This document shows positions 1,853 through 62,435 of a stretch of DNA of 64,000 nucleotides, piece by piece (the stretch's first letter is position 1; every line of letters starts with the position of its first letter). Source of the stretch: Escherichia phage vB_EcoM_LNA2. Under the pieces are notes generated by a model, which saw only the letters and a list, made by a program, of their open reading frames with translations, was not told the DNA's origin and searched no databases. The stretch lies in the sequence record MZ311865.1; one strand, given 5' to 3'. The position numbers were made by a program, and so were the translations under genes.

Positions 1853-4800
1853 ATGGCCGACATCAAACGTAAGTTCAGAGCCGAAGACGGTCTGGACGCC
1901 GGTGGCGACAAGATTGTTAACGTAGCATTAGCCGACCGTACAGTAGGTACTGATGGCGTAAACGTTGACTTCCTGGTACAAGAAAACACCGTTCAAGTAT
2001 ATGATTCTACGCGTGGATATAACAAAGGATTTGTTGTTCTTTATGACAACCGTTTATATCAAGCAATAAATGATATCGTGTCTCCTTCCGGGGCATTTAA
2101 CCTTTTACAATGGCGTGCAGTTCGTACCGATGCACAATGGATAACTGTAGCTTCTGGGTCTTATCAACTTTCTTCAGGTGAATCGATTTCGGTTAACACT
2201 GGTGCCGGCAATGATATGGTTTTCACGTTGCCAAATGCGCCGGTTGATGGTGACACTATTGTTTTGGCTGATATTGGTGGAAGAACCGGGGCAGTTAAAG
2301 TACAGATTAACGCGTCTGTGCAGAGTATTTTAAACTTTAGAGGCGAACAAGTTCGTACAGTTTTAATGACGCGTCCGCGTTCACAACTAGTGTTTGTGTT
2401 TAGTAATCGTTTGTGGCAGATGTATATTACCGATTATGGTAAAGAATCAATCACTGTTACACCTGCTACACCATATCAAGCGCAAGCAAACGATTTTATT
2501 GTTCTTCGTTTTACTAGTGCAGCACCAATCAACATTACACTTCCACGTAATGCTAACAATGGTGATATAATCAGCCTAGTTGATTTAGATAAATTAAACC
2601 CACTGTATCATACGATTATTAAAACATTTGATGATACAACGTCTATTGGCGAAGTCGGGACTCATATCGTCGAAGGTAGAACTTCTTCTGACGCGTTTTT
2701 TGTTTTTGATGCTGCAAATAGTTTATGGCGTATATGGGAAGGCGACCAGAAATCACGTCTTCGTATTATCCGTACAGATTCAAATATTCGCCCAAATGAA
2801 GAAGTTCTTATTTTTGGTACAAATAACGCTACAGCAGAAACTATTAACCTTACGCTTCCTACAGGAATTTTGACCGGTGACACTGTTAAAATTTCAATGA
2901 ACTACATGCGTAAAGGCCAAACAGTAAAAATTAAAGCTGCCGAAGGTGATACAATTGCTTCTTCTGTTGCATTACTTCAGTTCCCTAAACGTTCTGAATA
3001 TCCACCTGATGCTCAATGGGTCTCTGTTACTGAACTAGAATTCAATGGCACTACTTCATATGTTCCTGTATTAGAATTAGCGTATATCGAAGACACCGAT
3101 TCTGACACTCATTATTGGGTTGTGCAACAGAATGTCCCTACGGTAGAACGTGTTGATGCTGGAACTGATGCTACACGAGCTCGTTTAGGTGTTATTGCTC
3201 TTGCTACTCAAGCGCAAGCAAATGTTGATTTAGAGAATACTCCAGCTAAAGAAGTGGCTATTACTCCTGAAACTTTGGCAAATCGTACAGCAACTGAAGC
3301 TCGACGTGGTATCGCTAAAATTGCTACAACAGCACAAGTTAACCAGAATTCCACAGCATCATTTGTGGACGATACTATTGTTACGCCTAAAAAACTAAAT
3401 GAGCGTACAGCAACTGAAACTCGTCGTGGTCTTGCTGAAATTGCTACTCAGGCTGAAACCGATGCTGGTCTTGATGACACAACGATTATTACACCTAAGA
3501 AATTGCAGGCACGTCAGGGCTCTGAAACACTATCTGGTATAGTTAAATATGTATCAACTACTTCTGCTACACCTGCCGCGACTCGTGGAGCTGCAGGCAC
3601 TAATGTTTATAATAAAGACACAACCACGTTAACTATTTCTCCTAAAGCCCTTGACCAATATAAAGCAACTTATGCTCAACAAGGTGCAGTAATTTTAGCT
3701 GTTGATAGTGAAGTAATTGCTGGTCAATCACAAGCAGGTTATTCTCACGCTGTAGTAACTCCTGAAACACTACATAAGAAAACTTCTACTGATGGACGTA
3801 TTGGTTTAATTGAAATTGCTACGCAAGCAGAAACTAATGCTGGGACTGATTATACACGTGCAGTAACGCCTAAGACGTTAAATGATAGGAAAGCTACGGA
3901 AGGATTATCCGGCATAGCCGAACTTGCTACGCAAGTTGAATTTGATACTGGAACTGATGATACTCGTATCTCGACTCCACTGAAAATTAAAACTCATTTT
4001 GATTCTTCTGACCGTACCAGTGTTAATTCTGATTCCGGACTTATTGAAGAAGGAACCTTGTGGAACCATTATACTCTTGATATTTCTAAAGCAAATGAAA
4101 CACAACGTGGTACACTTCGCGTAGCGACCCAGGCAGAATCTAATGCAGGAACTTTAGATGATGTTCTTATTACTCCTAAAAAGCTTTTAGGGACTAAGTC
4201 CACTGAAACGTCTGAAGGCGTAATTAAGGTTGCTACTCAGGCTGAAACTGTAACAGGAACTTCTGCTAATACTGCTGTATCTCCTAAGAATTTAAAATGG
4301 ATTGTCCAGTCTGAACCAACATGGGCTGCTACTACGGCGATTCGTGGATTCGTTAAAACTTCATCCGGTTCTATTACATTCGTTGGTAATGATACAGTTG
4401 GTTCAACACAACCTTTAGAATCATATGAAAAAAATAGCTATGCTATATCTCCATATGAATTAAACCGTGTACTTGCTAACTATTTGCCATTGAAAGCTAA
4501 AGCAGTAGATAGTAATTTATTAGATGGTCTAGATTCATCTCAGTTCATTCGTAGGGATATTGCACAGACGGTTAATGGTTCACTAACCTTAACCCAACAA
4601 ACGAATCTGAGTGCCCCTCTTGTATCATCTAGTACTGCTACGTTTGGTGGTTCAGTTTCGGCAAATAGTACATTGACTATTTCTAACACTGGAACGACTT
4701 CTTCTCGATTTACATTTGAGAAAGGTCCTGCTTCTGGTAGTAATGCTGATTCTGCATTGTATGTTCGTGTATGGGGTAATAAGTACAGCGGCGGTTCTGA

Positions 4801-14072: not shown

Positions 14073-14705
14073 TCACAGTACATTAGTTACAAGGGTAATG
14101 ATTTCTTTGGACACATTAGGGAAGTCAATGTAAGTATATTTACCACCGATCTTAATCTTAACATCATTTTCAAGAGAAGTAAACAGCTTTGATTCAGTTT
14201 CTGACATGTTGTATGCAAAGATTCTAAGAGCGCCATCTCGACGAATTTCAATTTGGCGAATGCCTAGAACTCGTTTAGCGAATCGAACTTCTAAGTTACT
14301 ACGGTTTTCACCAATTTCTTTAACTTCAACTTTATCTTTAATATTTTCAAAAACAAAGTTTGCTAATTCATGCATTTCAGGAGTAACTCCACGTGCTTTT
14401 CTAGTGTTACGTTTCTGAAGAAGTTCTGGAGCATTTTCTTTGGCAAAGAGGTCTGCAGCTTTTTGGATAATATCCATTGCTTCGCCTGTTGCTACAAGTC
14501 CATCACCGGATTTTTCGACTAAACCTTTCTTAATCAATACACCAATGTTAGAGTTAACAACTGATGCATTGTATTCCGCTTCCAGAGCTTCACGGACATT
14601 GGCAGCAGTGGTGAAGTTGTTCTTAATGATATAAACCATTATTGCAGCAGTTTTTTCATTCAGAGCGTTTTCAGAAGCTTTGATGATGTAAGTAACTTTA
14701 GACAT
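14073..14705 (-). CDS. motA: middle transcription activator MotA
   Basis: 210 aa; MSKVTYIIKAS...NIGVLIKKGLVEKSGDGL... matches recalled T4 MotA; position between asiA and gene 52. Confidence 0.9.
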   Translation of the reverse strand: MSKVTYIIKASENALNEKTAAIMVYIIKNNFTTAANVREALEAEYNASVVNSNIGVLIKKGLVEKSGDGLVATGEAMDIIQKAADLFAKENAPELLQKRNTRKARGVTPEMHELANFVFENIKDKVEVKEIGENRSNLEVRFAKRVLGIRQIEIRRDGALRIFAYNMSETESKLFTSLENDVKIKIGGKYTYIDFPNVSKEIITLVTNVL

Positions 14706-14775
14706 TTTATTTCTCCAAATTAGTATTTGTTTTGATAGGTCTATAATATCATGTTTGAAGCAAAAGTAAACTTTA
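14701..14775 (-). repeat. copy A of ~75-bp duplicated promoter/5'UTR/start-codon cassette
   Basis: Near-identical to 15021..15097; includes GTTTAC -35, TATAAT-like -10, SD and ATGTCTAAA start of motA. Confidence 0.7.
14742..14771 (-). promoter_or_regulatory. T4-type early promoter (GTTTAC-N18-ATTATA) for motA
   Basis: Minus strand reads GTTTACttttgcttcaaacatgatATTATA; ~40 nt upstream of motA start. Confidence 0.5.
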
Positions 14776-14809
14776 TTTTGGGCTCTTTTTCCAAAAGCCC
14801 TGGTAAAAT

Positions 14810-15025
14810 TTACAAACTCATTTCTTTAATAAGGCCAATAAGTTTTGCCTTTTTAGAACGAAGCTTTTCTAAACGATGTCCATTTGAACCGCGAACCACT
14901 AAAGAATTGATTTCAACTTCTAAGAAATTTAATTCTTCAACAAGTGCTTTACGGGGAGCATTCATACCAGGTTTAACTTTACCAAAACGAGTAGTTGTGT
15001 TTTGGGTTAATTTCATTTTAGACAT
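14810..15025 (-). CDS. hypothetical 71-aa basic protein flanked by duplicated promoter cassette
   Basis: ORF MSKMKLTQNTTTRFGKVKPG...; starts with same ATGTCTAAA context as motA; lies between genes 52 and motA. Confidence 0.5.
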   Translation of the reverse strand: MSKMKLTQNTTTRFGKVKPGMNAPRKALVEELNFLEVEINSLVVRGSNGHRLEKLRSKKAKLIGLIKEMSL

Positions 15026-15097
15026 TTTATTTCTCCAATTTGGTTGTTTTGTTTTGATAGGTCTATAATATCATGTTTGAAGCACATGTAAACTGTT
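15021..15097 (-). repeat. copy B of ~75-bp duplicated promoter/5'UTR/start-codon cassette
   Basis: Near-identical to 14701..14775 (3-nt indel, few mismatches). Confidence 0.7.
15064..15093 (-). promoter_or_regulatory. T4-type early promoter (GTTTAC-N18-ATTATA)
   Basis: Minus strand GTTTACatgtgcttcaaacatgatATTATA upstream of the 71-aa ORF. Confidence 0.5.
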
Positions 15098-15103
15098 TTG
15101 TGA

Positions 15104-16879: not shown

Positions 16880-17326
16880 TTAGTAACTCTGCAGAATGAA
16901 TTTGAAATTATCTGCCAGAAGACGGTTCATTTCAGTGAGTGTTTGATATTCTGATGTATGGTTGCGAGTGAATGCCAGAGCCAATTGACCTTTACCATAA
17001 CCAGTGGTCAGTGGTTTCATGTTCTTAGCTGCAACAAAGATTACATCATATTCAATATTGTTAGTGCCCATGGTACGGGCTAGTTGTGAACGGCCTTGAC
17101 GAATGTGAGAAAGAATTGCATCCAACCCTTGTTTAGAACGTTGACGTCCTACAAAGAATCGTGCTGCTACTTGTCGCCAATCAGATGAACCTTTAACGAA
17201 GAAGTAAAAACCTTCACGAGAACGAAACTCTTTAGAAACTTCAGAACCGTATTCGCCATTACGAACTACTGCAACAACTTCACCGCCAACTGCCAGAAGG
17301 TCTTTACGAGTTAAATATTTGGACAT
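16880..17326 (-). CDS. ndd: nucleoid disruption protein Ndd
   Basis: 148 aa; ...FYVGNQRSKQG..LSHIRQ.RSQLART...[38 protein letters not shown] matches recalled T4 Ndd. Confidence 0.85.
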
Positions 17327-17362
17327 GCTAATTTCCTCAATTGATTAATGTTTTTGTAATCC

Positions 17363-17396
17363 ATGAGAGCATTATACTCTGCTCTCAAGAGTTTGT
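17363..17396 (-). repeat. 34-bp exact repeat, copy 1 (promoter-hairpin module)
   Basis: atgagagcattatactctgctctcaagagtttgt identical to 62096..62129; contains inverted repeat GAGAGC/GCTCTC around the -10. Confidence 0.7.
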
Positions 17397-17399
17397 ACA
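17371..17399 (-). promoter_or_regulatory. early promoter (TGTACA-N17-TATAAT) upstream of ndd
   Basis: Minus strand TGTACAaactcttgagagcagagTATAAT; -10 lies in loop of 6-bp stem. Confidence 0.45.
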
Positions 17400-17402
17400 A
17401 TT

Positions 17403-17603
17403 TTATTCGGCTATATCAGAACGTTCAAAAAGCTCTTCAACAGTTAAACATTCAGTGTCATCTTCAATAAAGAATCGAGTCCAACACGTTGGGGCGATAC
17501 AGTTATGAGTTTGTCCGGCTATAGAAGCTACACGAATAAGCTGCTGGCCATTGTTCAGGACAAATTTTTCACCAATTTCAACATCTTTAAAAAGCTTAGC
17601 CAT
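17403..17603 (-). CDS. hypothetical early protein
   Basis: 66-aa ORF; promoter 17632-17661 upstream. Confidence 0.4.
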   Translation of the reverse strand: MAKLFKDVEIGEKFVLNNGQQLIRVASIAGQTHNCIAPTCWTRFFIEDDTECLTVEELFERSDIAE

Positions 17604-18117: not shown

Positions 18118-18143
18118 GATGTTATCCTCTTTTAGATAGGACT

Positions 18144-18173
18144 ACTATATCATAGTCCTACTTAGTTGTAAAC
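18144..18173 (-). promoter_or_regulatory. T4-type early promoter (GTTTAC-N18-TATAGT) within stem-loop
   Basis: Minus strand GTTTACaactaagtaggactatgaTATAGT; plus-strand TAGGACT/AGTCCTA inverted repeat flanks the -10. Confidence 0.5.
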
Positions 18174-26773: not shown

Positions 26774-26801
26774 AATATTCTCCTCTTGTTTTGATAGGTC
26801 T

Positions 26802-26830
26802 ATAGTATCATAGACCATAGTTGTTGTACA
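26802..26830 (-). promoter_or_regulatory. early promoter (TGTACA-N17-TACTAT) within stem-loop
   Basis: Plus GGTCTA-tagtatca-TAGACC inverted repeat encloses the -10. Confidence 0.4.
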
Positions 26831-27355
26831 TCATTTTAGCAAAATAAAATCAACTTGTTCTGCCAATGAACGTCTGAACATTAATTGACAACTTCCGAGG
26901 ATGAAATCAGGTGCTTCATAGACCGCGATGTAGTATCCTTTAGCTTTCAAGAGTTCAACATCCACCTGGTCATCAAACCATGCATAAACCGCGTCAACAC
27001 TTTCAAATCCAAAATAGAACTCTTGAGCCCAATCTTCGCTCAATTCAAATGTGTGCTCAATTCTATAGTATCTTAAGATATTTTGTTCAAGGAGTTTGTC
27101 TTCATTTACTGTAGGACGATTAGGGACATTATAGTTGTCGCCATGATGGTAGAAGTTACCTGAGAGTATTCCATGCTTATCAAGGAACTCCCATGTTTCT
27201 TCAGAGTTGTCGGTGCCCGACCAACCGTATGGCGAACGAGGTTCTTTATTCCAAGAGGTTTCCCAAATTCTGACGGCTTTACCGTCTTCAATAGCAATTC
27301 CTGGTAATGATTCACGTTGAGTACAAAAACTACGTTCTACGCGGTAAACTAACAT
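26831..27355 (-). CDS. hypothetical early protein
   Basis: 174-aa ORF; 5' UTR carries 12-bp inverted repeat that would pair with the SD. Confidence 0.5.
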   Translation of the reverse strand: MLVYRVERSFCTQRESLPGIAIEDGKAVRIWETSWNKEPRSPYGWSGTDNSEETWEFLDKHGILSGNFYHHGDNYNVPNRPTVNEDKLLEQNILRYYRIEHTFELSEDWAQEFYFGFESVDAVYAWFDDQVDVELLKAKGYYIAVYEAPDFILGSCQLMFRRSLAEQVDFILLK

Positions 27356-27360
27356 ATTAT

Positions 27361-27410
27361 TCTCCTCTGGTTGATATGGTTATAATATCAAAACCAGAGG
27401 AGAAGTAAAC
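27361..27410 (-). promoter_or_regulatory. promoter-in-stem-loop module: 12-bp inverted repeat sequestering SD + internal early promoter
   Basis: TCTCCTCTGGTT (27361-27372) / AACCAGAGGAGA (27392-27403) perfect inverted repeat; GTTTAC 27405-27410; -10 at 27381-27386 in loop. Confidence 0.5.
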
Positions 27411-27414
27411 AACT

Positions 27415-27834
27415 TTATGCAAAAGATGCTGGACAATATTTTTTGATTTGGAACTCAGGAACTACCATGAACTGTCCAGCAAAAACAATGTTATAAAGCT
27501 TGACTCCATCTTCAACCCATTGGTCACTGATGAACCCAGCGACTTGATTCGTTGTCCACGGTGTTCCATCTGTCGCAGAGGCAATGGTGAACTTGTGGTC
27601 TTTTACAACTAAAACCGATCTGCACAGTTTCCATTTGAACGCTTTTTCTTCCGGTTCAATGAATTGGCTTTTAACGTAACCAATGTTACCATCGGCGTCA
27701 CGAACTTTAACTTCGTTACGTCCAAAAACAGGATCACTCACATAAAGAACTTCAACCAACTTCCCGGCAACTTTAGAGCGAGAAGCATCCGATACGTGTA
27801 CATAATCACCAATAGAGAGATTTGCAATATTCAT
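27415..27834 (-). CDS. paralog family member A (139 aa), unknown function
   Basis: Shares C-terminal motif GFISDQWVEDG.KLYNIVF.G.F.VV with next two ORFs. Confidence 0.55.
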   Translation of the reverse strand: MNIANLSIGDYVHVSDASRSKVAGKLVEVLYVSDPVFGRNEVKVRDADGNIGYVKSQFIEPEEKAFKWKLCRSVLVVKDHKFTIASATDGTPWTTNQVAGFISDQWVEDGVKLYNIVFAGQFMVVPEFQIKKYCPASFA

Positions 27835-27843
27835 AATAATTCC

Positions 27844-28341
27844 TTAAGCTTTACGAGGAGACACATAGCGAGTGATTTCAGATTCTTCAACAACTCGGAA
27901 GTCACCTAAGAATACAATATTGTATAGCTTTTTACCATCTTCAACCCATTGGTCGCTGATGAAGCCGCACATAGTATCAGTTTTGCTTGGATAACCGTAT
28001 TCGTCGATGTAATCAAATTCTTTATCGGTTATAAATTCAACGCCTTTGCAAAGGGCCCATTTGAACTGTGTAGTAGGCTCAACGATATCGCTTGAAGCAA
28101 AGTGTGCAGGTGCAACTTCTTCGCTTGAAGCAAATTGGACTCGTATATGTTTTTCCAGGAATTTAGGACTTACGTAAGCATACTGGGCATCTTGTCCGCC
28201 AAAACTGGGGATGATTCGAACTTTAACTTCTTTAACACGTCCCATGCCGTTAGTACGAAGCCCTGCTACTTCAACCAGACGACCTGCAGCTTTAGAACGA
28301 GAAGCAGGAGATACACGAAGGATTTCACCAATAGTAATCAT
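27844..28341 (-). CDS. paralog family member B (165 aa), unknown function
   Basis: Track ORF 27844..28404; start moved to ATG 28339-28341 (MITIGEIL...) because promoter 28372-28402 lies inside the longer ORF. Confidence 0.55.
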   Translation of the reverse strand: MITIGEILRVSPASRSKAAGRLVEVAGLRTNGMGRVKEVKVRIIPSFGGQDAQYAYVSPKFLEKHIRVQFASSEEVAPAHFASSDIVEPTTQFKWALCKGVEFITDKEFDYIDEYGYPSKTDTMCGFISDQWVEDGKKLYNIVFLGDFRVVEESEITRYVSPRKA

Positions 28342-28371
28342 ATTTTTTCTCTCTTTGTTTAAGTTGAATTC

Positions 28372-28402
28372 ATTATACTCCATCCATCCTTGGATGTAAA
28401 AC
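28372..28402 (-). promoter_or_regulatory. T4-type early promoter (TTTACA-N17-TATAAT)
   Basis: Minus strand GTTTTACatccaaggatggatggagTATAAT. Confidence 0.5.
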
Positions 28403-28403
28403 A

Positions 28404-28898
28404 TTAATTAAGAATATTAACTACTGCACTACGTGGAACAACACTAAAATCACCAGCATGAACAACGTTAATAAGTTCAACACCATCTTCAATCCACTGG
28501 TCAGTTACCCATCCACTCACTGGACCTGCGAACGGACGTCGAATTGAAACGGCTTTACACAACAAATCAGTAGGCTCAATAGGCTTAATCAGAGTACCGT
28601 ACATACAAGCGATGTCCATATCAAAGTGGAGACCATCTTTAACAGGTGCTTCTTCAATCAAGAGTTCAAAGTCGGTGCTCGGAAGGGCAGTAGTAGAAAT
28701 TGTACCGTATGAATTTTTAATTTCTAAGAATAACCAAGGGCCTTCAACTTGTTTGATGAAGTTAACAATAGTGAAACTATTACCTTGAGTGGCACCTAAA
28801 ATTTCACAAAACTTTTCATAAGCTCGCACTGAAGCACCGTACCAATTGATTTGTTTTTCGTCTTTCAGGATGTAAGTAGCCGTAGTATTGATATTCAT
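28404..28898 (-). CDS. paralog family member C (164 aa), unknown function
   Basis: C-terminal SGWVTDQWIEDGVELINVVHAGDFSVV aligns with paralogs A/B. Confidence 0.55.
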   Translation of the reverse strand: MNINTTATYILKDEKQINWYGASVRAYEKFCEILGATQGNSFTIVNFIKQVEGPWLFLEIKNSYGTISTTALPSTDFELLIEEAPVKDGLHFDMDIACMYGTLIKPIEPTDLLCKAVSIRRPFAGPVSGWVTDQWIEDGVELINVVHAGDFSVVPRSAVVNILN

Positions 28899-32783: not shown

Positions 32784-32840
32784 TTAGGTTTCTCCTGTGG
32801 TTGATAAAGGTATAGTATCATCATCGGAAGAGTTTGTACA

Positions 32841-33422
32841 CTAAAAATTCAACATTTTCAAATGAATGATTTTGTATAATCGAGATAAAGGGTCATATTC
32901 TAAGTCTTCAATTTCCACAATCTCAAATCTAGAGATACCTGAGACCATGTACTCTTGTTCAGATTCAATCATATCTAGGATGTCAACACGCGTTTCTTCC
33001 ATAACATGCTTAGGGTTCTTTCCGGCGAGTACAATGTTAACCATGTTTTGGTAGTAATCAAAAATGAATGGAGCATTCCTGAGACTAAGAATAGTGTACG
33101 TCTGATATTCCCATCTCCCAGAGAATTGACGAGCTGTACTGAAATCAGTTGTGAATGATGTTACTCGTCCAGGAGACCAATAGCATCCAACAGAAAGAAG
33201 TGAAAGACGTTCTACTTCTTCTGGAGTTACACCACGGTAGAGTTCTACTGGTACTGTAGAAGTCATATGCTTACGAACAAGATGGTCTAATTCATAGTGG
33301 AAATCCGGGTCTTCCTTAGAATCGGTGCAAGCCCAGAGAATGTTTTGTTCTTGGCGGGTGAATTTGCTATCAATCAGATTTGTTAGGTATTCACGTTCTT
33401 GAAGTTCAGATTGACATGTCAT
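32841..33422 (-). CDS. modB: Mod-family ADP-ribosyltransferase (ModB-like)
   Basis: 193 aa; LYRGVT, SF.TTDFS, SEQEYMV motifs; shares N-terminal ...NILW.C... with adjacent paralog. Confidence 0.6.
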   Translation of the reverse strand: MTCQSELQEREYLTNLIDSKFTRQEQNILWACTDSKEDPDFHYELDHLVRKHMTSTVPVELYRGVTPEEVERLSLLSVGCYWSPGRVTSFTTDFSTARQFSGRWEYQTYTILSLRNAPFIFDYYQNMVNIVLAGKNPKHVMEETRVDILDMIESEQEYMVSGISRFEIVEIEDLEYDPLSRLYKIIHLKMLNF

Positions 33423-38788: not shown

Positions 38789-38817
38789 TTTAACTCCTTA
38801 GTTGATTTGATAGGACT

Positions 38818-38847
38818 ACTATACTATAGTCCATCTATAATGTAAAC
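38818..38847 (-). promoter_or_regulatory. T4-type early promoter (GTTTAC-N18-TATAGT) within stem-loop
   Basis: Minus strand GTTTACattatagatggactatagTATAGT; plus GGACTA/TAGTCC inverted repeat. Confidence 0.5.
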
Positions 38848-39790: not shown

Positions 39791-40104
39791 ATTTCCTCGC
39801 AAAATGCCCATTCAGCGTGATAAACTGTAGCACCTTTAGTATCATTCATTTGAACTACGTCTACCGGAGAAATTACTCGATAGAGACGTGGTTCACCTCC
39901 ATAAGAGCGTGCTGCTCGTCCTGCATAAATCTTTGCTAAACCGATATCTTCAGTAAAGAATACACGATCCAAGTTTTTCTTACGTCCAGTTTCAGACAGA
40001 ACTCCTGTTTCCTCAGGAGGACAAAGCATGTTTTCGATGTTAGCTGAACTACTTGAACCGTGATAAAAAATCTTAAATTCTGCTTTACAATCGATGGTTT
40101 TCAT
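39787..40104 (-). CDS. hypothetical accessory protein (105 aa)
   Basis: ORF between 41 and dmd with no remembered T4 counterpart; contains FYHGSS...KIYAGRA...E. Confidence 0.45.
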   Translation of the reverse strand: MKTIDCKAEFKIFYHGSSSSANIENMLCPPEETGVLSETGRKKNLDRVFFTEDIGLAKIYAGRAARSYGGEPRLYRVISPVDVVQMNDTKGATVYHAEWAFCEEI

Positions 40105-40129
40105 TTTGTTCTCCAGTAGTTGATAGGTC

Positions 40130-40159
40130 TATAATAACACAACTACTGGAGAAGTAAAC
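40130..40159 (-). promoter_or_regulatory. T4-type early promoter (GTTTAC-N18-ATTATA)
   Basis: Minus strand GTTTACttctccagtagttgtgttATTATAGACC. Confidence 0.45.
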
Positions 40160-61513: not shown

Positions 61514-61737
61514 TCTAGTTCCTTTGCTGCTTCAAGAGCATCATCCAACGAATCAAATTGGTCAACGAAATCGATATTCAACGCATCGTCAGCCGTAGCA
61601 TATAGCCACCATTGTTTGAATTCATATTCTAGGATAAATCCAAGCCCTTCAATCTGAGAAAGACCTAGGCTATTTGTACCAACTTCGTAACCAGCTAGAC
61701 GCAGGTCATTAATCAAAGATTCTGTTAATACGCTCAT
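61510..61737 (-). CDS. hypothetical protein
   Basis: 75-aa acidic ORF. Confidence 0.45.
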   Translation of the reverse strand: MSVLTESLINDLRLAGYEVGTNSLGLSQIEGLGFILEYEFKQWWLYATADDALNIDFVDQFDSLDDALEAAKELE

Positions 61738-62066
61738 TTTACCGCCTTAACAATTTTCAGGTCAACGAATTTTTTCTTACGTTGATTTTTCATACGACGG
61801 ATAGTCTTTTCAGAGATTTCATGTTTCTGATAAGCTTTAGATTCAACACCAAATGCAGCAACATCAAATTCAGAAAGAATATATTGTACTAGAATTTCAC
61901 GAATAGAATTACGTCCAATTTTCTGGTCGTGTTTTTGCATGATTTCATAAAGACGGAATTCCCACGCGTCAAGAACTTGAGGAGTAACAATATTGCCGGA
62001 TTCCAGAAGAGCAACAACTTTATCGAAAGCGAAAGAATTAACTACATTTTTGATTTTAGTAGACAT
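61734..62066 (-). CDS. hypothetical protein
   Basis: Track ORF 61734..62105; ATG 62064-62066 has GAGGAAAA SD (MSTKIKN...); longer ORF would start inside promoter repeat. Confidence 0.45.
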   Translation of the reverse strand: MSTKIKNVVNSFAFDKVVALLESGNIVTPQVLDAWEFRLYEIMQKHDQKIGRNSIREILVQYILSEFDVAAFGVESKAYQKHEISEKTIRRMKNQRKKKFVDLKIVKAVK

Positions 62067-62095
62067 ATTATTTTCCTCGGTTATTTTATTATCCA

Positions 62096-62129
62096 ATGAG
62101 AGCATTATACTCTGCTCTCAAGAGTTTGT
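62096..62129 (-). repeat. 34-bp exact repeat, copy 2 (promoter-hairpin module)
   Basis: Identical to 17363..17396. Confidence 0.7.
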
Positions 62130-62132
62130 GCA
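62104..62132 (-). promoter_or_regulatory. early promoter-like element (TGCACA-N17-TATAAT)
   Basis: Same -10/hairpin as ndd promoter; -35 diverges just outside the repeat. Confidence 0.4.
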
Positions 62133-62372
62133 TTATTCCGTGATAAGATAATGTAAATAGTTTGCTTGACGAACACTGATATCAACACCCATATCAAAGA
62201 TACCTTTATAGAACGGGTATTTGTTTTCAGTAGAATCTAGACTAAAAGCCTTTCCACCACAACTAACGGTAATAGCATCAGTTAAAGTGTCATATACAAA
62301 CTTAATAGTTGAGCCATTCACTACGACTTCAAGACGTTTTTTCGATGTAATAACGTCTAATTCTTGTTCCAT
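62133..62372 (-). CDS. hypothetical protein
   Basis: 79-aa ORF. Confidence 0.4.
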   Translation of the reverse strand: MEQELDVITSKKRLEVVVNGSTIKFVYDTLTDAITVSCGGKAFSLDSTENKYPFYKGIFDMGVDISVRQANYLHYLITE

Positions 62373-62435
62373 GATATTTTCCTCATTTTAAGACGATAGG
62401 AAGATAATAACATGACTTCCTATCGTTGTATATTA

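Follow-up and report, generated by a model that had tools for sequence, protein, structure and literature searches.

A repeated 34-bp element of a Mosigvirus genome: a probable early-promoter cassette with a hairpin around its -10 box and an adjoining RegB-type site

Background

The closest described counterparts of the element considered here are the promoter-early stem-loop (PeSL) cassettes of T4-type phages, known from RB49 and phi1 (Arbiol et al. 2010) and from T4/PST and KVP40/nt-1 (Comeau et al. 2014). Their stem-loops commonly lie between the -35 box and the -10 box or overlap the latter, and the cassettes are repeated, stand at indel junctions and recombine with each other (Arbiol 2010; Comeau 2014).

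A direct homologue is found in T4 itself, in the early promoter and leader of gene motB (GTTTACAAACTCT-TGGGACCA-GAGTATAA-TGGTCCCG-TGGAGTATAAAA). Promoter-dependent primer-extension stops in vivo and cleavage by the RegB nuclease have both been demonstrated there, and the motB site, GGAGUAUAAAA, is a model RegB substrate that is cleaved in vivo as well as in vitro (Durand 2006, in the consulted passages of which we found no discussion of the hairpin). In T4 early RNAs, strong sites of RegB/S1 cleavage follow the consensus GG^AGRAYARAA (Uzan & Miller 2010; Durand 2006). The motB element differs from the copies described below in serving another downstream gene, in a stem that has been altered by compensatory changes, and in having GGAG where these have GGAU.

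The T4 genes e, soc, 49 and I-TevI have a promoter placed inside a hairpin, with the consequence that read-through RNA folds and the promoter's own RNA does not. The element resembles these in having its predicted start at the end of a hairpin, which leaves read-through RNA as the only kind to hold both arms. It differs in that the T4 promoters are late promoters whose hairpin sequesters the ribosome-binding site; the Shine-Dalgarno sequence (SD) here stands 20-30 nt past the hairpin, which does not sequester it.

The DNA analysed is a window of 64,000 nucleotides from Escherichia phage vB_EcoM_LNA2 (MZ311865.1), an RB69-like T4-type phage of the genus Mosigvirus, to which several records are 98-99% identical. 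We know of no description of PeSLs in phages of the RB69 type.

The repeat and its genomic setting

The 34-mer ATGAGAGCATTATACTCTGCTCTCAAGAGTTTGT (minus-strand form, ACAAACTCTTGAGAGCAGAGTATAATGCTCTCAT) occurs exactly at two places in the 64-kb window, at 17363-17396 (copy 1) and at 62096-62129 (copy 2), both read on the minus strand. A search of the whole window finds no further copy at up to 3 mismatches and none at up to 12, and 100 dinucleotide-preserving shuffles of the window contain no match; the exact repeat at two loci that had been picked out in an earlier, sequence-only reading is thus secure. With flanks included, the likeness of the two copies extends over 54 nt at 85%.

The genes around both copies are on the minus strand, and each element (2 of 2) is intergenic, running from the stop codon of a same-strand upstream ORF to the SD and ATG of the downstream ORF. 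Copy 1, identical in RB69, lies in a 76-nt gap (17327-17402) between the stop codon, at 17403, of ndd.1 (66 aa, 17403-17603) and the ATG, at 17326, of ndd (148 aa, 16880-17326), the gene that it would serve. Copy 2 lies in a 66-nt gap (62067-62132) between the stop codon, at 62133, of a 79-aa ORF (62133-62372), a divergent allele of RB69 ORF075c, and the ATG, at 62066, of a 110-aa ORF (61734-62066). Placement of the copies upstream of ndd and of a 110-aa ORF had been recognized from the start; the latter can now be named as the homologue of gene 55.2. These neighbours match the annotated RB69-type gene pairs ndd.1/ndd and ORF075c/55.2.

Promoter elements

Both copies have σ70-like -35 and -10 boxes separated by a 17-nt spacer and directed toward the downstream gene, which is the architecture of T4 and RB69 early promoters. 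In copy 1, the -10 hexamer TATAAT is at 17371-17376 and the -35 hexamer TGTACA, which is only partly inside the exact repeat, at 17394-17399; in copy 2, TATAAT is at 62104-62109 and a weaker -35 hexamer, TGCACA, at 62127-62132 (all minus strand). Counting the usual 7 nt from the -10 box predicts that transcription starts at an A in each copy (17364 and 62097), and it follows that the 34-bp repeat covers approximately -32 to +2. In this numbering the -10 box is a perfect TATAAT at -12 to -7 in both copies. Positions -36 to -31 read TTGTAC (copy 1) and ATGCAC (copy 2), with 4 of 6 and 3 of 6 matches to GTTTAC, and by that standard both -35 boxes are weak; most other members of the family defined below have GTTTAC or GTGTAC.

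Copies 1 and 2 correspond to Pe:165022 (HMM score 18.2) and Pe:42515 (HMM score 8.9) among the RB69 early promoter predictions of Nolan et al. 2006, in which neighbouring promoters score 38-40; the stronger RB69 promoters Pe:165283 and Pe:165795 are the window promoters at ~17637 and ~18149. The identification of both copies as promoters, already proposed from the sequence, is sustained as a prediction by the T4/RB69 early architecture, by these RB69 assignments (Nolan 2006) and by the T4 motB homologue. Both are therefore treated as predicted σ70 early promoters, presumably active in LNA2 from the starts given above.

An ATG that had been remarked beside the -10 box arises when the CAT at the predicted +1 is read on the plus strand; other family members do not conserve it, and the remark is withdrawn. 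Read as the start of a leaderless or short ORF, this plus-strand ATG opens a 35-aa antisense ORF that has no support. The minus-strand AUG at +1 of copy 1 was likewise rejected as a start codon, being missing in copy 2 and in most family members, and so was a plus-strand promoter with TATACT in the loop, for which there is no acceptable -35 box and which the promoter scan did not find. (Two GenBank records, KT184310.1 and OL960577.1, label the same 34-bp element differently, as 'sequence similar to consensus host promoter' and as 'terminator'.)

A covariance model of the promoter-hairpin family finds no member in the window beyond copies 1 and 2, which score 64 and 62 bits (the T4 motB element scores 67 bits). 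A partial match of 20 bits is made at 32822-32842 (minus strand), where TGTACAAACTCTT has the -35 box and spacer in common with the 34-bp element and then diverges. This promoter is upstream of modA, by position in the modA-modB gap of RB69.

A hairpin around the -10 box

The minus-strand inverted repeat TGAGAGCA-gagtataa-TGCTCTCA, alike in both copies, specifies an 8-bp stem with 4 G-C pairs and an 8-nt loop. In copy 1 it occupies 17364-17387, with its 5' arm in the promoter spacer (approximately -23 to -16) and its 3' arm at approximately -7 to +1; the hairpin of copy 2, at 62097-62120, has the same sequence. (The inverted repeat had been described at first as a 6-bp stem with the whole TATAAT box in its loop. 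The hairpin is there, with a stem of 8 bp and only TATAA in the loop, the last T of the box belonging to the 3' arm.) As RNA the hairpin has a predicted dG of ~-12.6 kcal/mol and a z-score of ~-3.4 against shuffles. Transcription is predicted to begin at the final base of the 3' arm, and the hairpin would for that reason be present only in transcripts that read through from the upstream gene. Read-through RNA from ndd.1, for example, would hold the full hairpin ~16 nt past the ndd.1 stop codon.

Three other promoters of the window that had been described as sitting in small stem-loops, at 18135-18160, 26796-26815 and 38813-38832, are indeed all predicted early promoters, and each has its -10 box within a hairpin. 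The arrangement extends further: the -10 box is in a loop in ~10 of the 18 predicted early promoters of the window, and 44-nt segments around the -10 box of the 18 predicted minus-strand early promoters fold with a mean of -8.8 kcal/mol, as against -4.5 kcal/mol at 374 control -10-like hexamers. This difference (Mann-Whitney p = 0.0012) indicates that placing the -10 box in a hairpin is common among the early promoters of this genome.

Two further predicted early promoters (minus strand, 27353-27410 and 40102-40159) lie in larger hairpins, of 13-14 bp and -21 to -24 kcal/mol. An anti-SD sequence within the promoter spacer, TTCTCCTCTGGTT or TTCTCCAGTAGTTG, makes up the 5' arm, and the 3' arm holds the downstream SD, which is also a RegB consensus (GGAGAATAATA, GGAGAACAAAA). 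Read-through RNA would mask both SD and RegB site, and the promoter's own RNA would expose both. These two promoters, as distinct from the 34-bp element, do follow the logic of the T4 e, soc and 49 late-promoter hairpins.

What might the hairpin of the 34-bp element do in RNA? In the original reading of PeSLs it would serve mainly as a terminator or attenuator against polymerase arriving from upstream, each small gene being provided with a promoter of its own and RegB being uninvolved. One PeSL stem-loop of RB49/phi1 reduces lacZ expression approximately as much as rrnB T1 does (Arbiol 2010), one GenBank record annotates the 34-bp element as a terminator, and the sense-strand G.U pattern described below would suit any role at the level of RNA. 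The element also resembles an intrinsic terminator in forming an RNA hairpin directly past a stop codon. It differs from one in that the stem is short (just 8 bp, of which 4 are G-C), of moderate stability and not followed by a U tract: the tails after the stem are UGGAUUACAA and UUGGAUAAUA, the RNA continuing with UGGAUUAC or UUGGAUAAU. A terminator scan of the minus strand calls neither copy. With no U tract and no call, an intrinsic (Rho-independent) terminator was rejected; the broader terminator or attenuator reading, which also leaves unexplained the invariant GGA and A-rich motif directly past the stem, is possible but rather unlikely. (The families of Rfam 15, searched at gathering score, have no match anywhere in the window.)

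Selection on the hairpin among T4-like phages

An exact 24-mer scan of IMG/VR returned 3 loci only, and was replaced by a degenerate pattern with a free stem. IMG/VR and a metagenome collection were scanned for CAAACTCT-N8-GAGTATAAT, in which the 5' arm is free and the 3' arm is untouched. The result is bimodal: 38 distinct T4-like members form 6 or more of the 8 pairs, and a further 61 sequences, unrelated to these, average ~2 pairs (none of these 61 has T4-like flanks). The blocks ACAAACTCT and GAGTATAAT were fixed in the search pattern, and their invariance is for that reason not evidence. The promoter-hairpin family so defined is found in at least 4 T4-like genera.

The evidence that bears on function is in the stem, which was left free. 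In 31 distinct 40-nt members, 97.6% of stem cells are paired, a figure that is inflated by the 6-of-8 pairing filter; the compensatory pattern is unaffected by that filter. Six of the 8 stem pairs have changed on both sides among these 31 members (which are phylogenetically related, so that there were fewer independent events than the counts suggest). The covariation score is 0.514, compared with 0.26 in shuffles, none of 500 of which reaches 0.514, and sliding the partner by 1-3 columns as a control leaves only ~44% of cells paired. Pairing that is kept by compensatory changes implies selection for the hairpin, and in this respect the strong selection on a common regulatory module that had been surmised from the exact identity of the two copies is borne out.

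The stem cells that are not Watson-Crick pairs indicate which nucleic acid is selected. On the sense strand 28 of these are G.T and 2 are A.C. Sense-strand A-to-G and C-to-T changes both feed G.T cells, and the strand-mirror changes are almost missing. The sense-strand excess of G.T argues for selection on RNA of mRNA sense, rather than on a DNA cruciform. (The wobble tally is better strand evidence than a comparison of folding energies: the sense strand folds more stably in 30 of 31 members, but this was discounted, since even a perfect stem shows a difference of ~1 kcal/mol from one strand to the other.) The hairpin is thus most likely selected as RNA, in read-through transcripts, and a role in read-through RNA is more likely than one in promoter recognition.

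An inverted repeat might alternatively act in DNA, as a cruciform or hairpin that exposes the -10 box as a single strand and so helps to melt the promoter, or as a target of a junction enzyme that makes the element a recombination hot spot. The hairpin promoters of phage N4 and the single-stranded DNA promoters of plasmids are precedents for the former. The -10 box in a loop in ~10 of 18 predicted early promoters would accord with a role in DNA, as would the location of the element at recombination junctions and the crossovers that have been mapped inside PeSL loops (Arbiol 2010). However, a cruciform requires pairing in both strands, and the 28 G.T cells (against 2 A.C) become A.C mismatches in the antisense strand; moreover, an 8-bp stem with an 8-nt loop makes a poor cruciform, and homologous recombination requires sequence identity alone and no palindrome. 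An action in DNA is accordingly judged improbable.

Dyad symmetry centred on the -10 box is also the classic geometry of a repressor site, and the palindrome could in principle be the operator at which a dimeric DNA-binding protein shuts these promoters off. The arms, however, vary with genus and locus (GAGAGC, GGGACC, GGGGTC, GGGAGT) while remaining complementary, which speaks for a nucleic-acid structure and not for a sequence recognized by protein; an operator is very improbable.

The RegB-type site

Directly past the stem, each copy has a RegB/S1-type site (minus strand). In copy 1 this is GGATTACAAAA at 17352-17362, 1 nt past the hairpin, with 10 of 11 matches to GGAKRAYARAA; in copy 2 it is GGATAATAAAA at 62084-62094, 2 nt past the hairpin, with 11 of 11. 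As RNA, the copy 1 site GGAUUACAAAA is the poorer match to consensus, and the copy 2 site GGAUAAUAAAA is identical to the GGAU site of the T4 55.2 leader. Predicted folds put the site outside the hairpin, and both sites are in intergenic leaders. In this region, which is outside the search pattern, GGA stands 1-2 nt past the stem in 37 of 37 distinct family members, and 36 of the 37 agree with GGAKRAYARAA at no fewer than 9 of its 11 positions. RegB consensus sequences show no enrichment over the entire window (22 against an expected 22), and the argument therefore rests on the position and conservation of the site and not on abundance.

Several properties of T4 RegB bear on how these sites are to be read (Durand 2006). 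GGAU, which is present at both window sites, is rarely cut by T4 RegB; the GGAU of T4 55.2 is one of only two such sites that are cleaved in vivo in T4. The copy 1 site has C at position 7, a base that is not seen among the cut T4 sites. Cleavage requires no sequence 5' of GGAG, from which it follows that the hairpin is not part of the nuclease site itself. RegB (its gene lies outside the 64-kb window) would be expected to cut at the window sites, on the strength of their sequence and placement.

The pairing of hairpin and site is seen in T4 even where the promoter is not. Upstream of T4 ndd and 55.2, the promoter is absent, and at both places a hairpin is kept, with UUGGAG/U and then an A-rich tail after it. 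This suggests that hairpin and following RegB site form a unit of their own. The two T4 hairpins, between ndd.1 and ndd (region L164, 2542-2601) and between 55.3 and 55.2 (region L165, 787-840), precede UUGGAGUAGAAAA or UUGGAUAAUAAAA; one is GGCCGUG...CGCGGCC, and the other has a UUCG tetraloop and a U run.

Copies 1 and 2 can thus probably be thought of as a three-part regulatory cassette on the minus strand, made up of early promoter, hairpin and RegB/S1-type site. The description of the module as a promoter with a hairpin, which the sequence-only reading had given, was essentially right, and did not include the RegB-type site next to it or the link to PeSLs as already published.

Comparison with PeSL cassettes

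The correspondence with PeSLs is close. The element is intergenic, between an upstream stop codon and a downstream SD and ATG; it is repeated in the genome and placed among small non-essential early genes; it stands at insertion or replacement junctions between close relatives (copy 2, and gp277 of SP18, below); and it has σ70-like boxes with a ~17-nt spacer and a stable stem-loop of the class that overlaps the -10 box. There are also differences. The stem is A/G-mixed (GAGAGC), where that of RB49 is polyG/polyC, and the stem-loops of PST/T4 are placed just upstream of the promoter (Comeau 2014). The subfamily in the window adds a conserved RegB-type site directly past the stem, with no U tract. 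On the AT-rich tract upstream of PeSLs the comparison is less clear-cut: the flanks upstream of the element, GCCGAATAAAAT and CACGGAATAA, have no more than a moderate AT content and extend into the end of the gene before it. The element is very probably a PeSL-type early-promoter cassette, and as such it belongs to an already described class of shuffled cassettes; it is real, and mostly ordinary.

Relatives, mobility and recombination

The repeat is widespread among relatives, the opposite of the absence that would have told against the sequence-only reading: the 34-mer, or at least 28 nt of it, is present at 347 places in 160 phage records, at 2-3 copies per genome among carriers. A third Mosigvirus locus, upstream of e.6 and outside the window, matches at 33 of 34 positions. 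The location of the module changes with genus. In T4 it stands before motB, in Mosigvirus before ndd, 55.2 and e.6, in Gaprivervirus before ndd, gp277, motB and a 160-aa ORF, and in phage AR1 before e.6. When applied to four T4 regions, the family covariance model finds the motB element only, and none at the orthologous T4 loci of ndd, 55.2 and e.6.

The two copies differ in conservation. Over the 71 nt made up of copy 1 and its flanks, 132 records, among them RB69, have an identity of at least 99%, and the copy itself is invariant in ~150 records while the flanking DNA differs by 1-5%. Copy 2 is variable, with at least 99% identity in 21 records only and 96 records in the 90-95% band. The RB69 version of copy 2, CGAGAGAT-gagtataa-TTCTCTCG, differs from that of the window at 5 hairpin positions, and in two stem pairs both partners are changed (T-A has become C-G, and C-G has become A-T). 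Copy 2 of 8 further relatives forms a nested series from the RB69 type to the window type. These states fit either recombination tracts that end inside the element or stepwise compensatory change by way of a U.G intermediate.

It had been suggested that exact identity at two loci reflects recent recombination. This is plausible, in that copy 2 is polymorphic and mosaic and stands at the junction of a swapped cassette. The last step to 34 of 34 requires less: phages ST0 and LF82-3 have 33 of 34, and a single G/A difference, which turns U.G into U-A, separates them from 34 of 34, so that a point change explains this step equally well. More broadly, 18 of the 34 positions are pattern-fixed and the same in all collected members, and the 16 stem positions, which differ between genera, are common to the two to three Mosigvirus copies. 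The shared stems, with the mosaic states of copy 2, point to recent common origin or to recombination among copies.

Could the hairpin then lack any function of its own, the copies being identical simply through very recent copying of one from the other? T4-type phages recombine at short homologies, and the two copies are identical, as this would require. Against it, the architecture is kept with compensatory changes in at least 4 genera and at several loci, and copy 1 has remained invariant over a range of records in which its flanks have not; copying alone is a very unlikely account, and selection on the hairpin remains the preferred one.

The 79-aa ORF upstream of copy 2 has 50-90% identity to its counterparts in RB69 and six other relatives, between flanks that are 95-100% identical. 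The low-coordinate junction of this swap is in the 34-bp element and the other is at the next hairpin promoter. The alleles of the ORF fall into two classes, ~30% apart in DNA, among Mosigvirus genomes that are otherwise 95-100% identical, and the hairpin promoter upstream of the ORF (~62380-62432) is polymorphic in LF82-3, OLB35 and phiE142.

Shigella phage SP18 (region L015, 166519-167787) has gp277 (112 aa) between ndd.1 and ndd, with a family copy on each side, where Mosigvirus has a single copy. This layout is the topology expected of the insertion of a cassette at a PeSL.

Other repeats were encountered in the window. At 14678-15102, two adjacent near-identical units ~320 bp apart each combine an early promoter (-10 boxes at 14748 and at 15070, with 91% identity across 55 nt) with a common gene start, GGAGAAATAAAATGTCTAAA, as if a small early gene had been duplicated in tandem. 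At 27444-28514, three 94-nt direct repeats, 62-70% identical and ~430-550 nt apart, are in coding sequence, at the position of the motB.2/MotB-like/motB paralogue cluster of RB69. Periodic families of 19-48-nt direct repeats at 3131-4248 (plus strand) are in a large gene and probably encode a repeated peptide motif of a tail fibre.

A possible mechanism

How promoter, hairpin and RegB-type site might work together can be set out tentatively; we consider the specific mechanism, which joins the hairpin to RegB, somewhat less than probable. The σ70 early promoter would fire right after infection, for ndd (copy 1) and for gene 55.2 (copy 2). The promoter's own transcripts would lack the hairpin, and the RegB/S1 site, GGA(G/U) with its A-rich tail, 1-2 nt past the hairpin, would form their extreme 5' end. 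Read-through transcripts would carry the hairpin just past the upstream stop codon, where it would mark and protect the upstream message at its 3' end, acting as an attenuator, or as a barrier to exonuclease once RegB cuts GG^A. In both kinds of transcript, cleavage of the leader by RegB would leave a 5'-OH end on the downstream message. Such an end would lead to rapid decay, as in T4, and early genes of the ndd and 55.2 type would thereby be kept transient. Apart from the role of RegB, identity at 34 of 34 positions would probably arise because the Mosigvirus copies (at ndd, at 55.2 and, in relatives, at e.6) are recent paralogues or have been homogenised by recombination, and the cassettes would serve as portable patches of homology at which neighbouring small genes are swapped.

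Conclusions

The general picture of T4 early transcription is left unchanged. What the element provides is a clean example of how T4-type phages pack gene control into short portable cassettes: a unit of ~50 nt, comprising promoter, hairpin and nuclease site, is placed before different early genes in each genus and marks the edges of swapped genes. The new part is comparative, and consists of a strand signature of hairpin selection that points to RNA, together with a fixed RegB-type site that has been validated in T4 at the motB and 55.2 homologues. The association of hairpin with RegB site offers a testable alternative to the terminator role that is usually assumed for the stem-loops of PeSLs.

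More speculatively, the stem-loops of this subfamily, and perhaps those of PeSLs generally, may be not terminators but one half of an RNA 'punctuation mark', a reading that we regard as doubtful. If it is true, polycistronic early RNA would be cleaved by the phage nuclease at a point just past a hairpin that protects it, and the same RegB site would strip the triphosphate end from transcripts of the embedded promoter. One portable 50-nt cassette would then couple initiation, separation of cistrons and timed decay.
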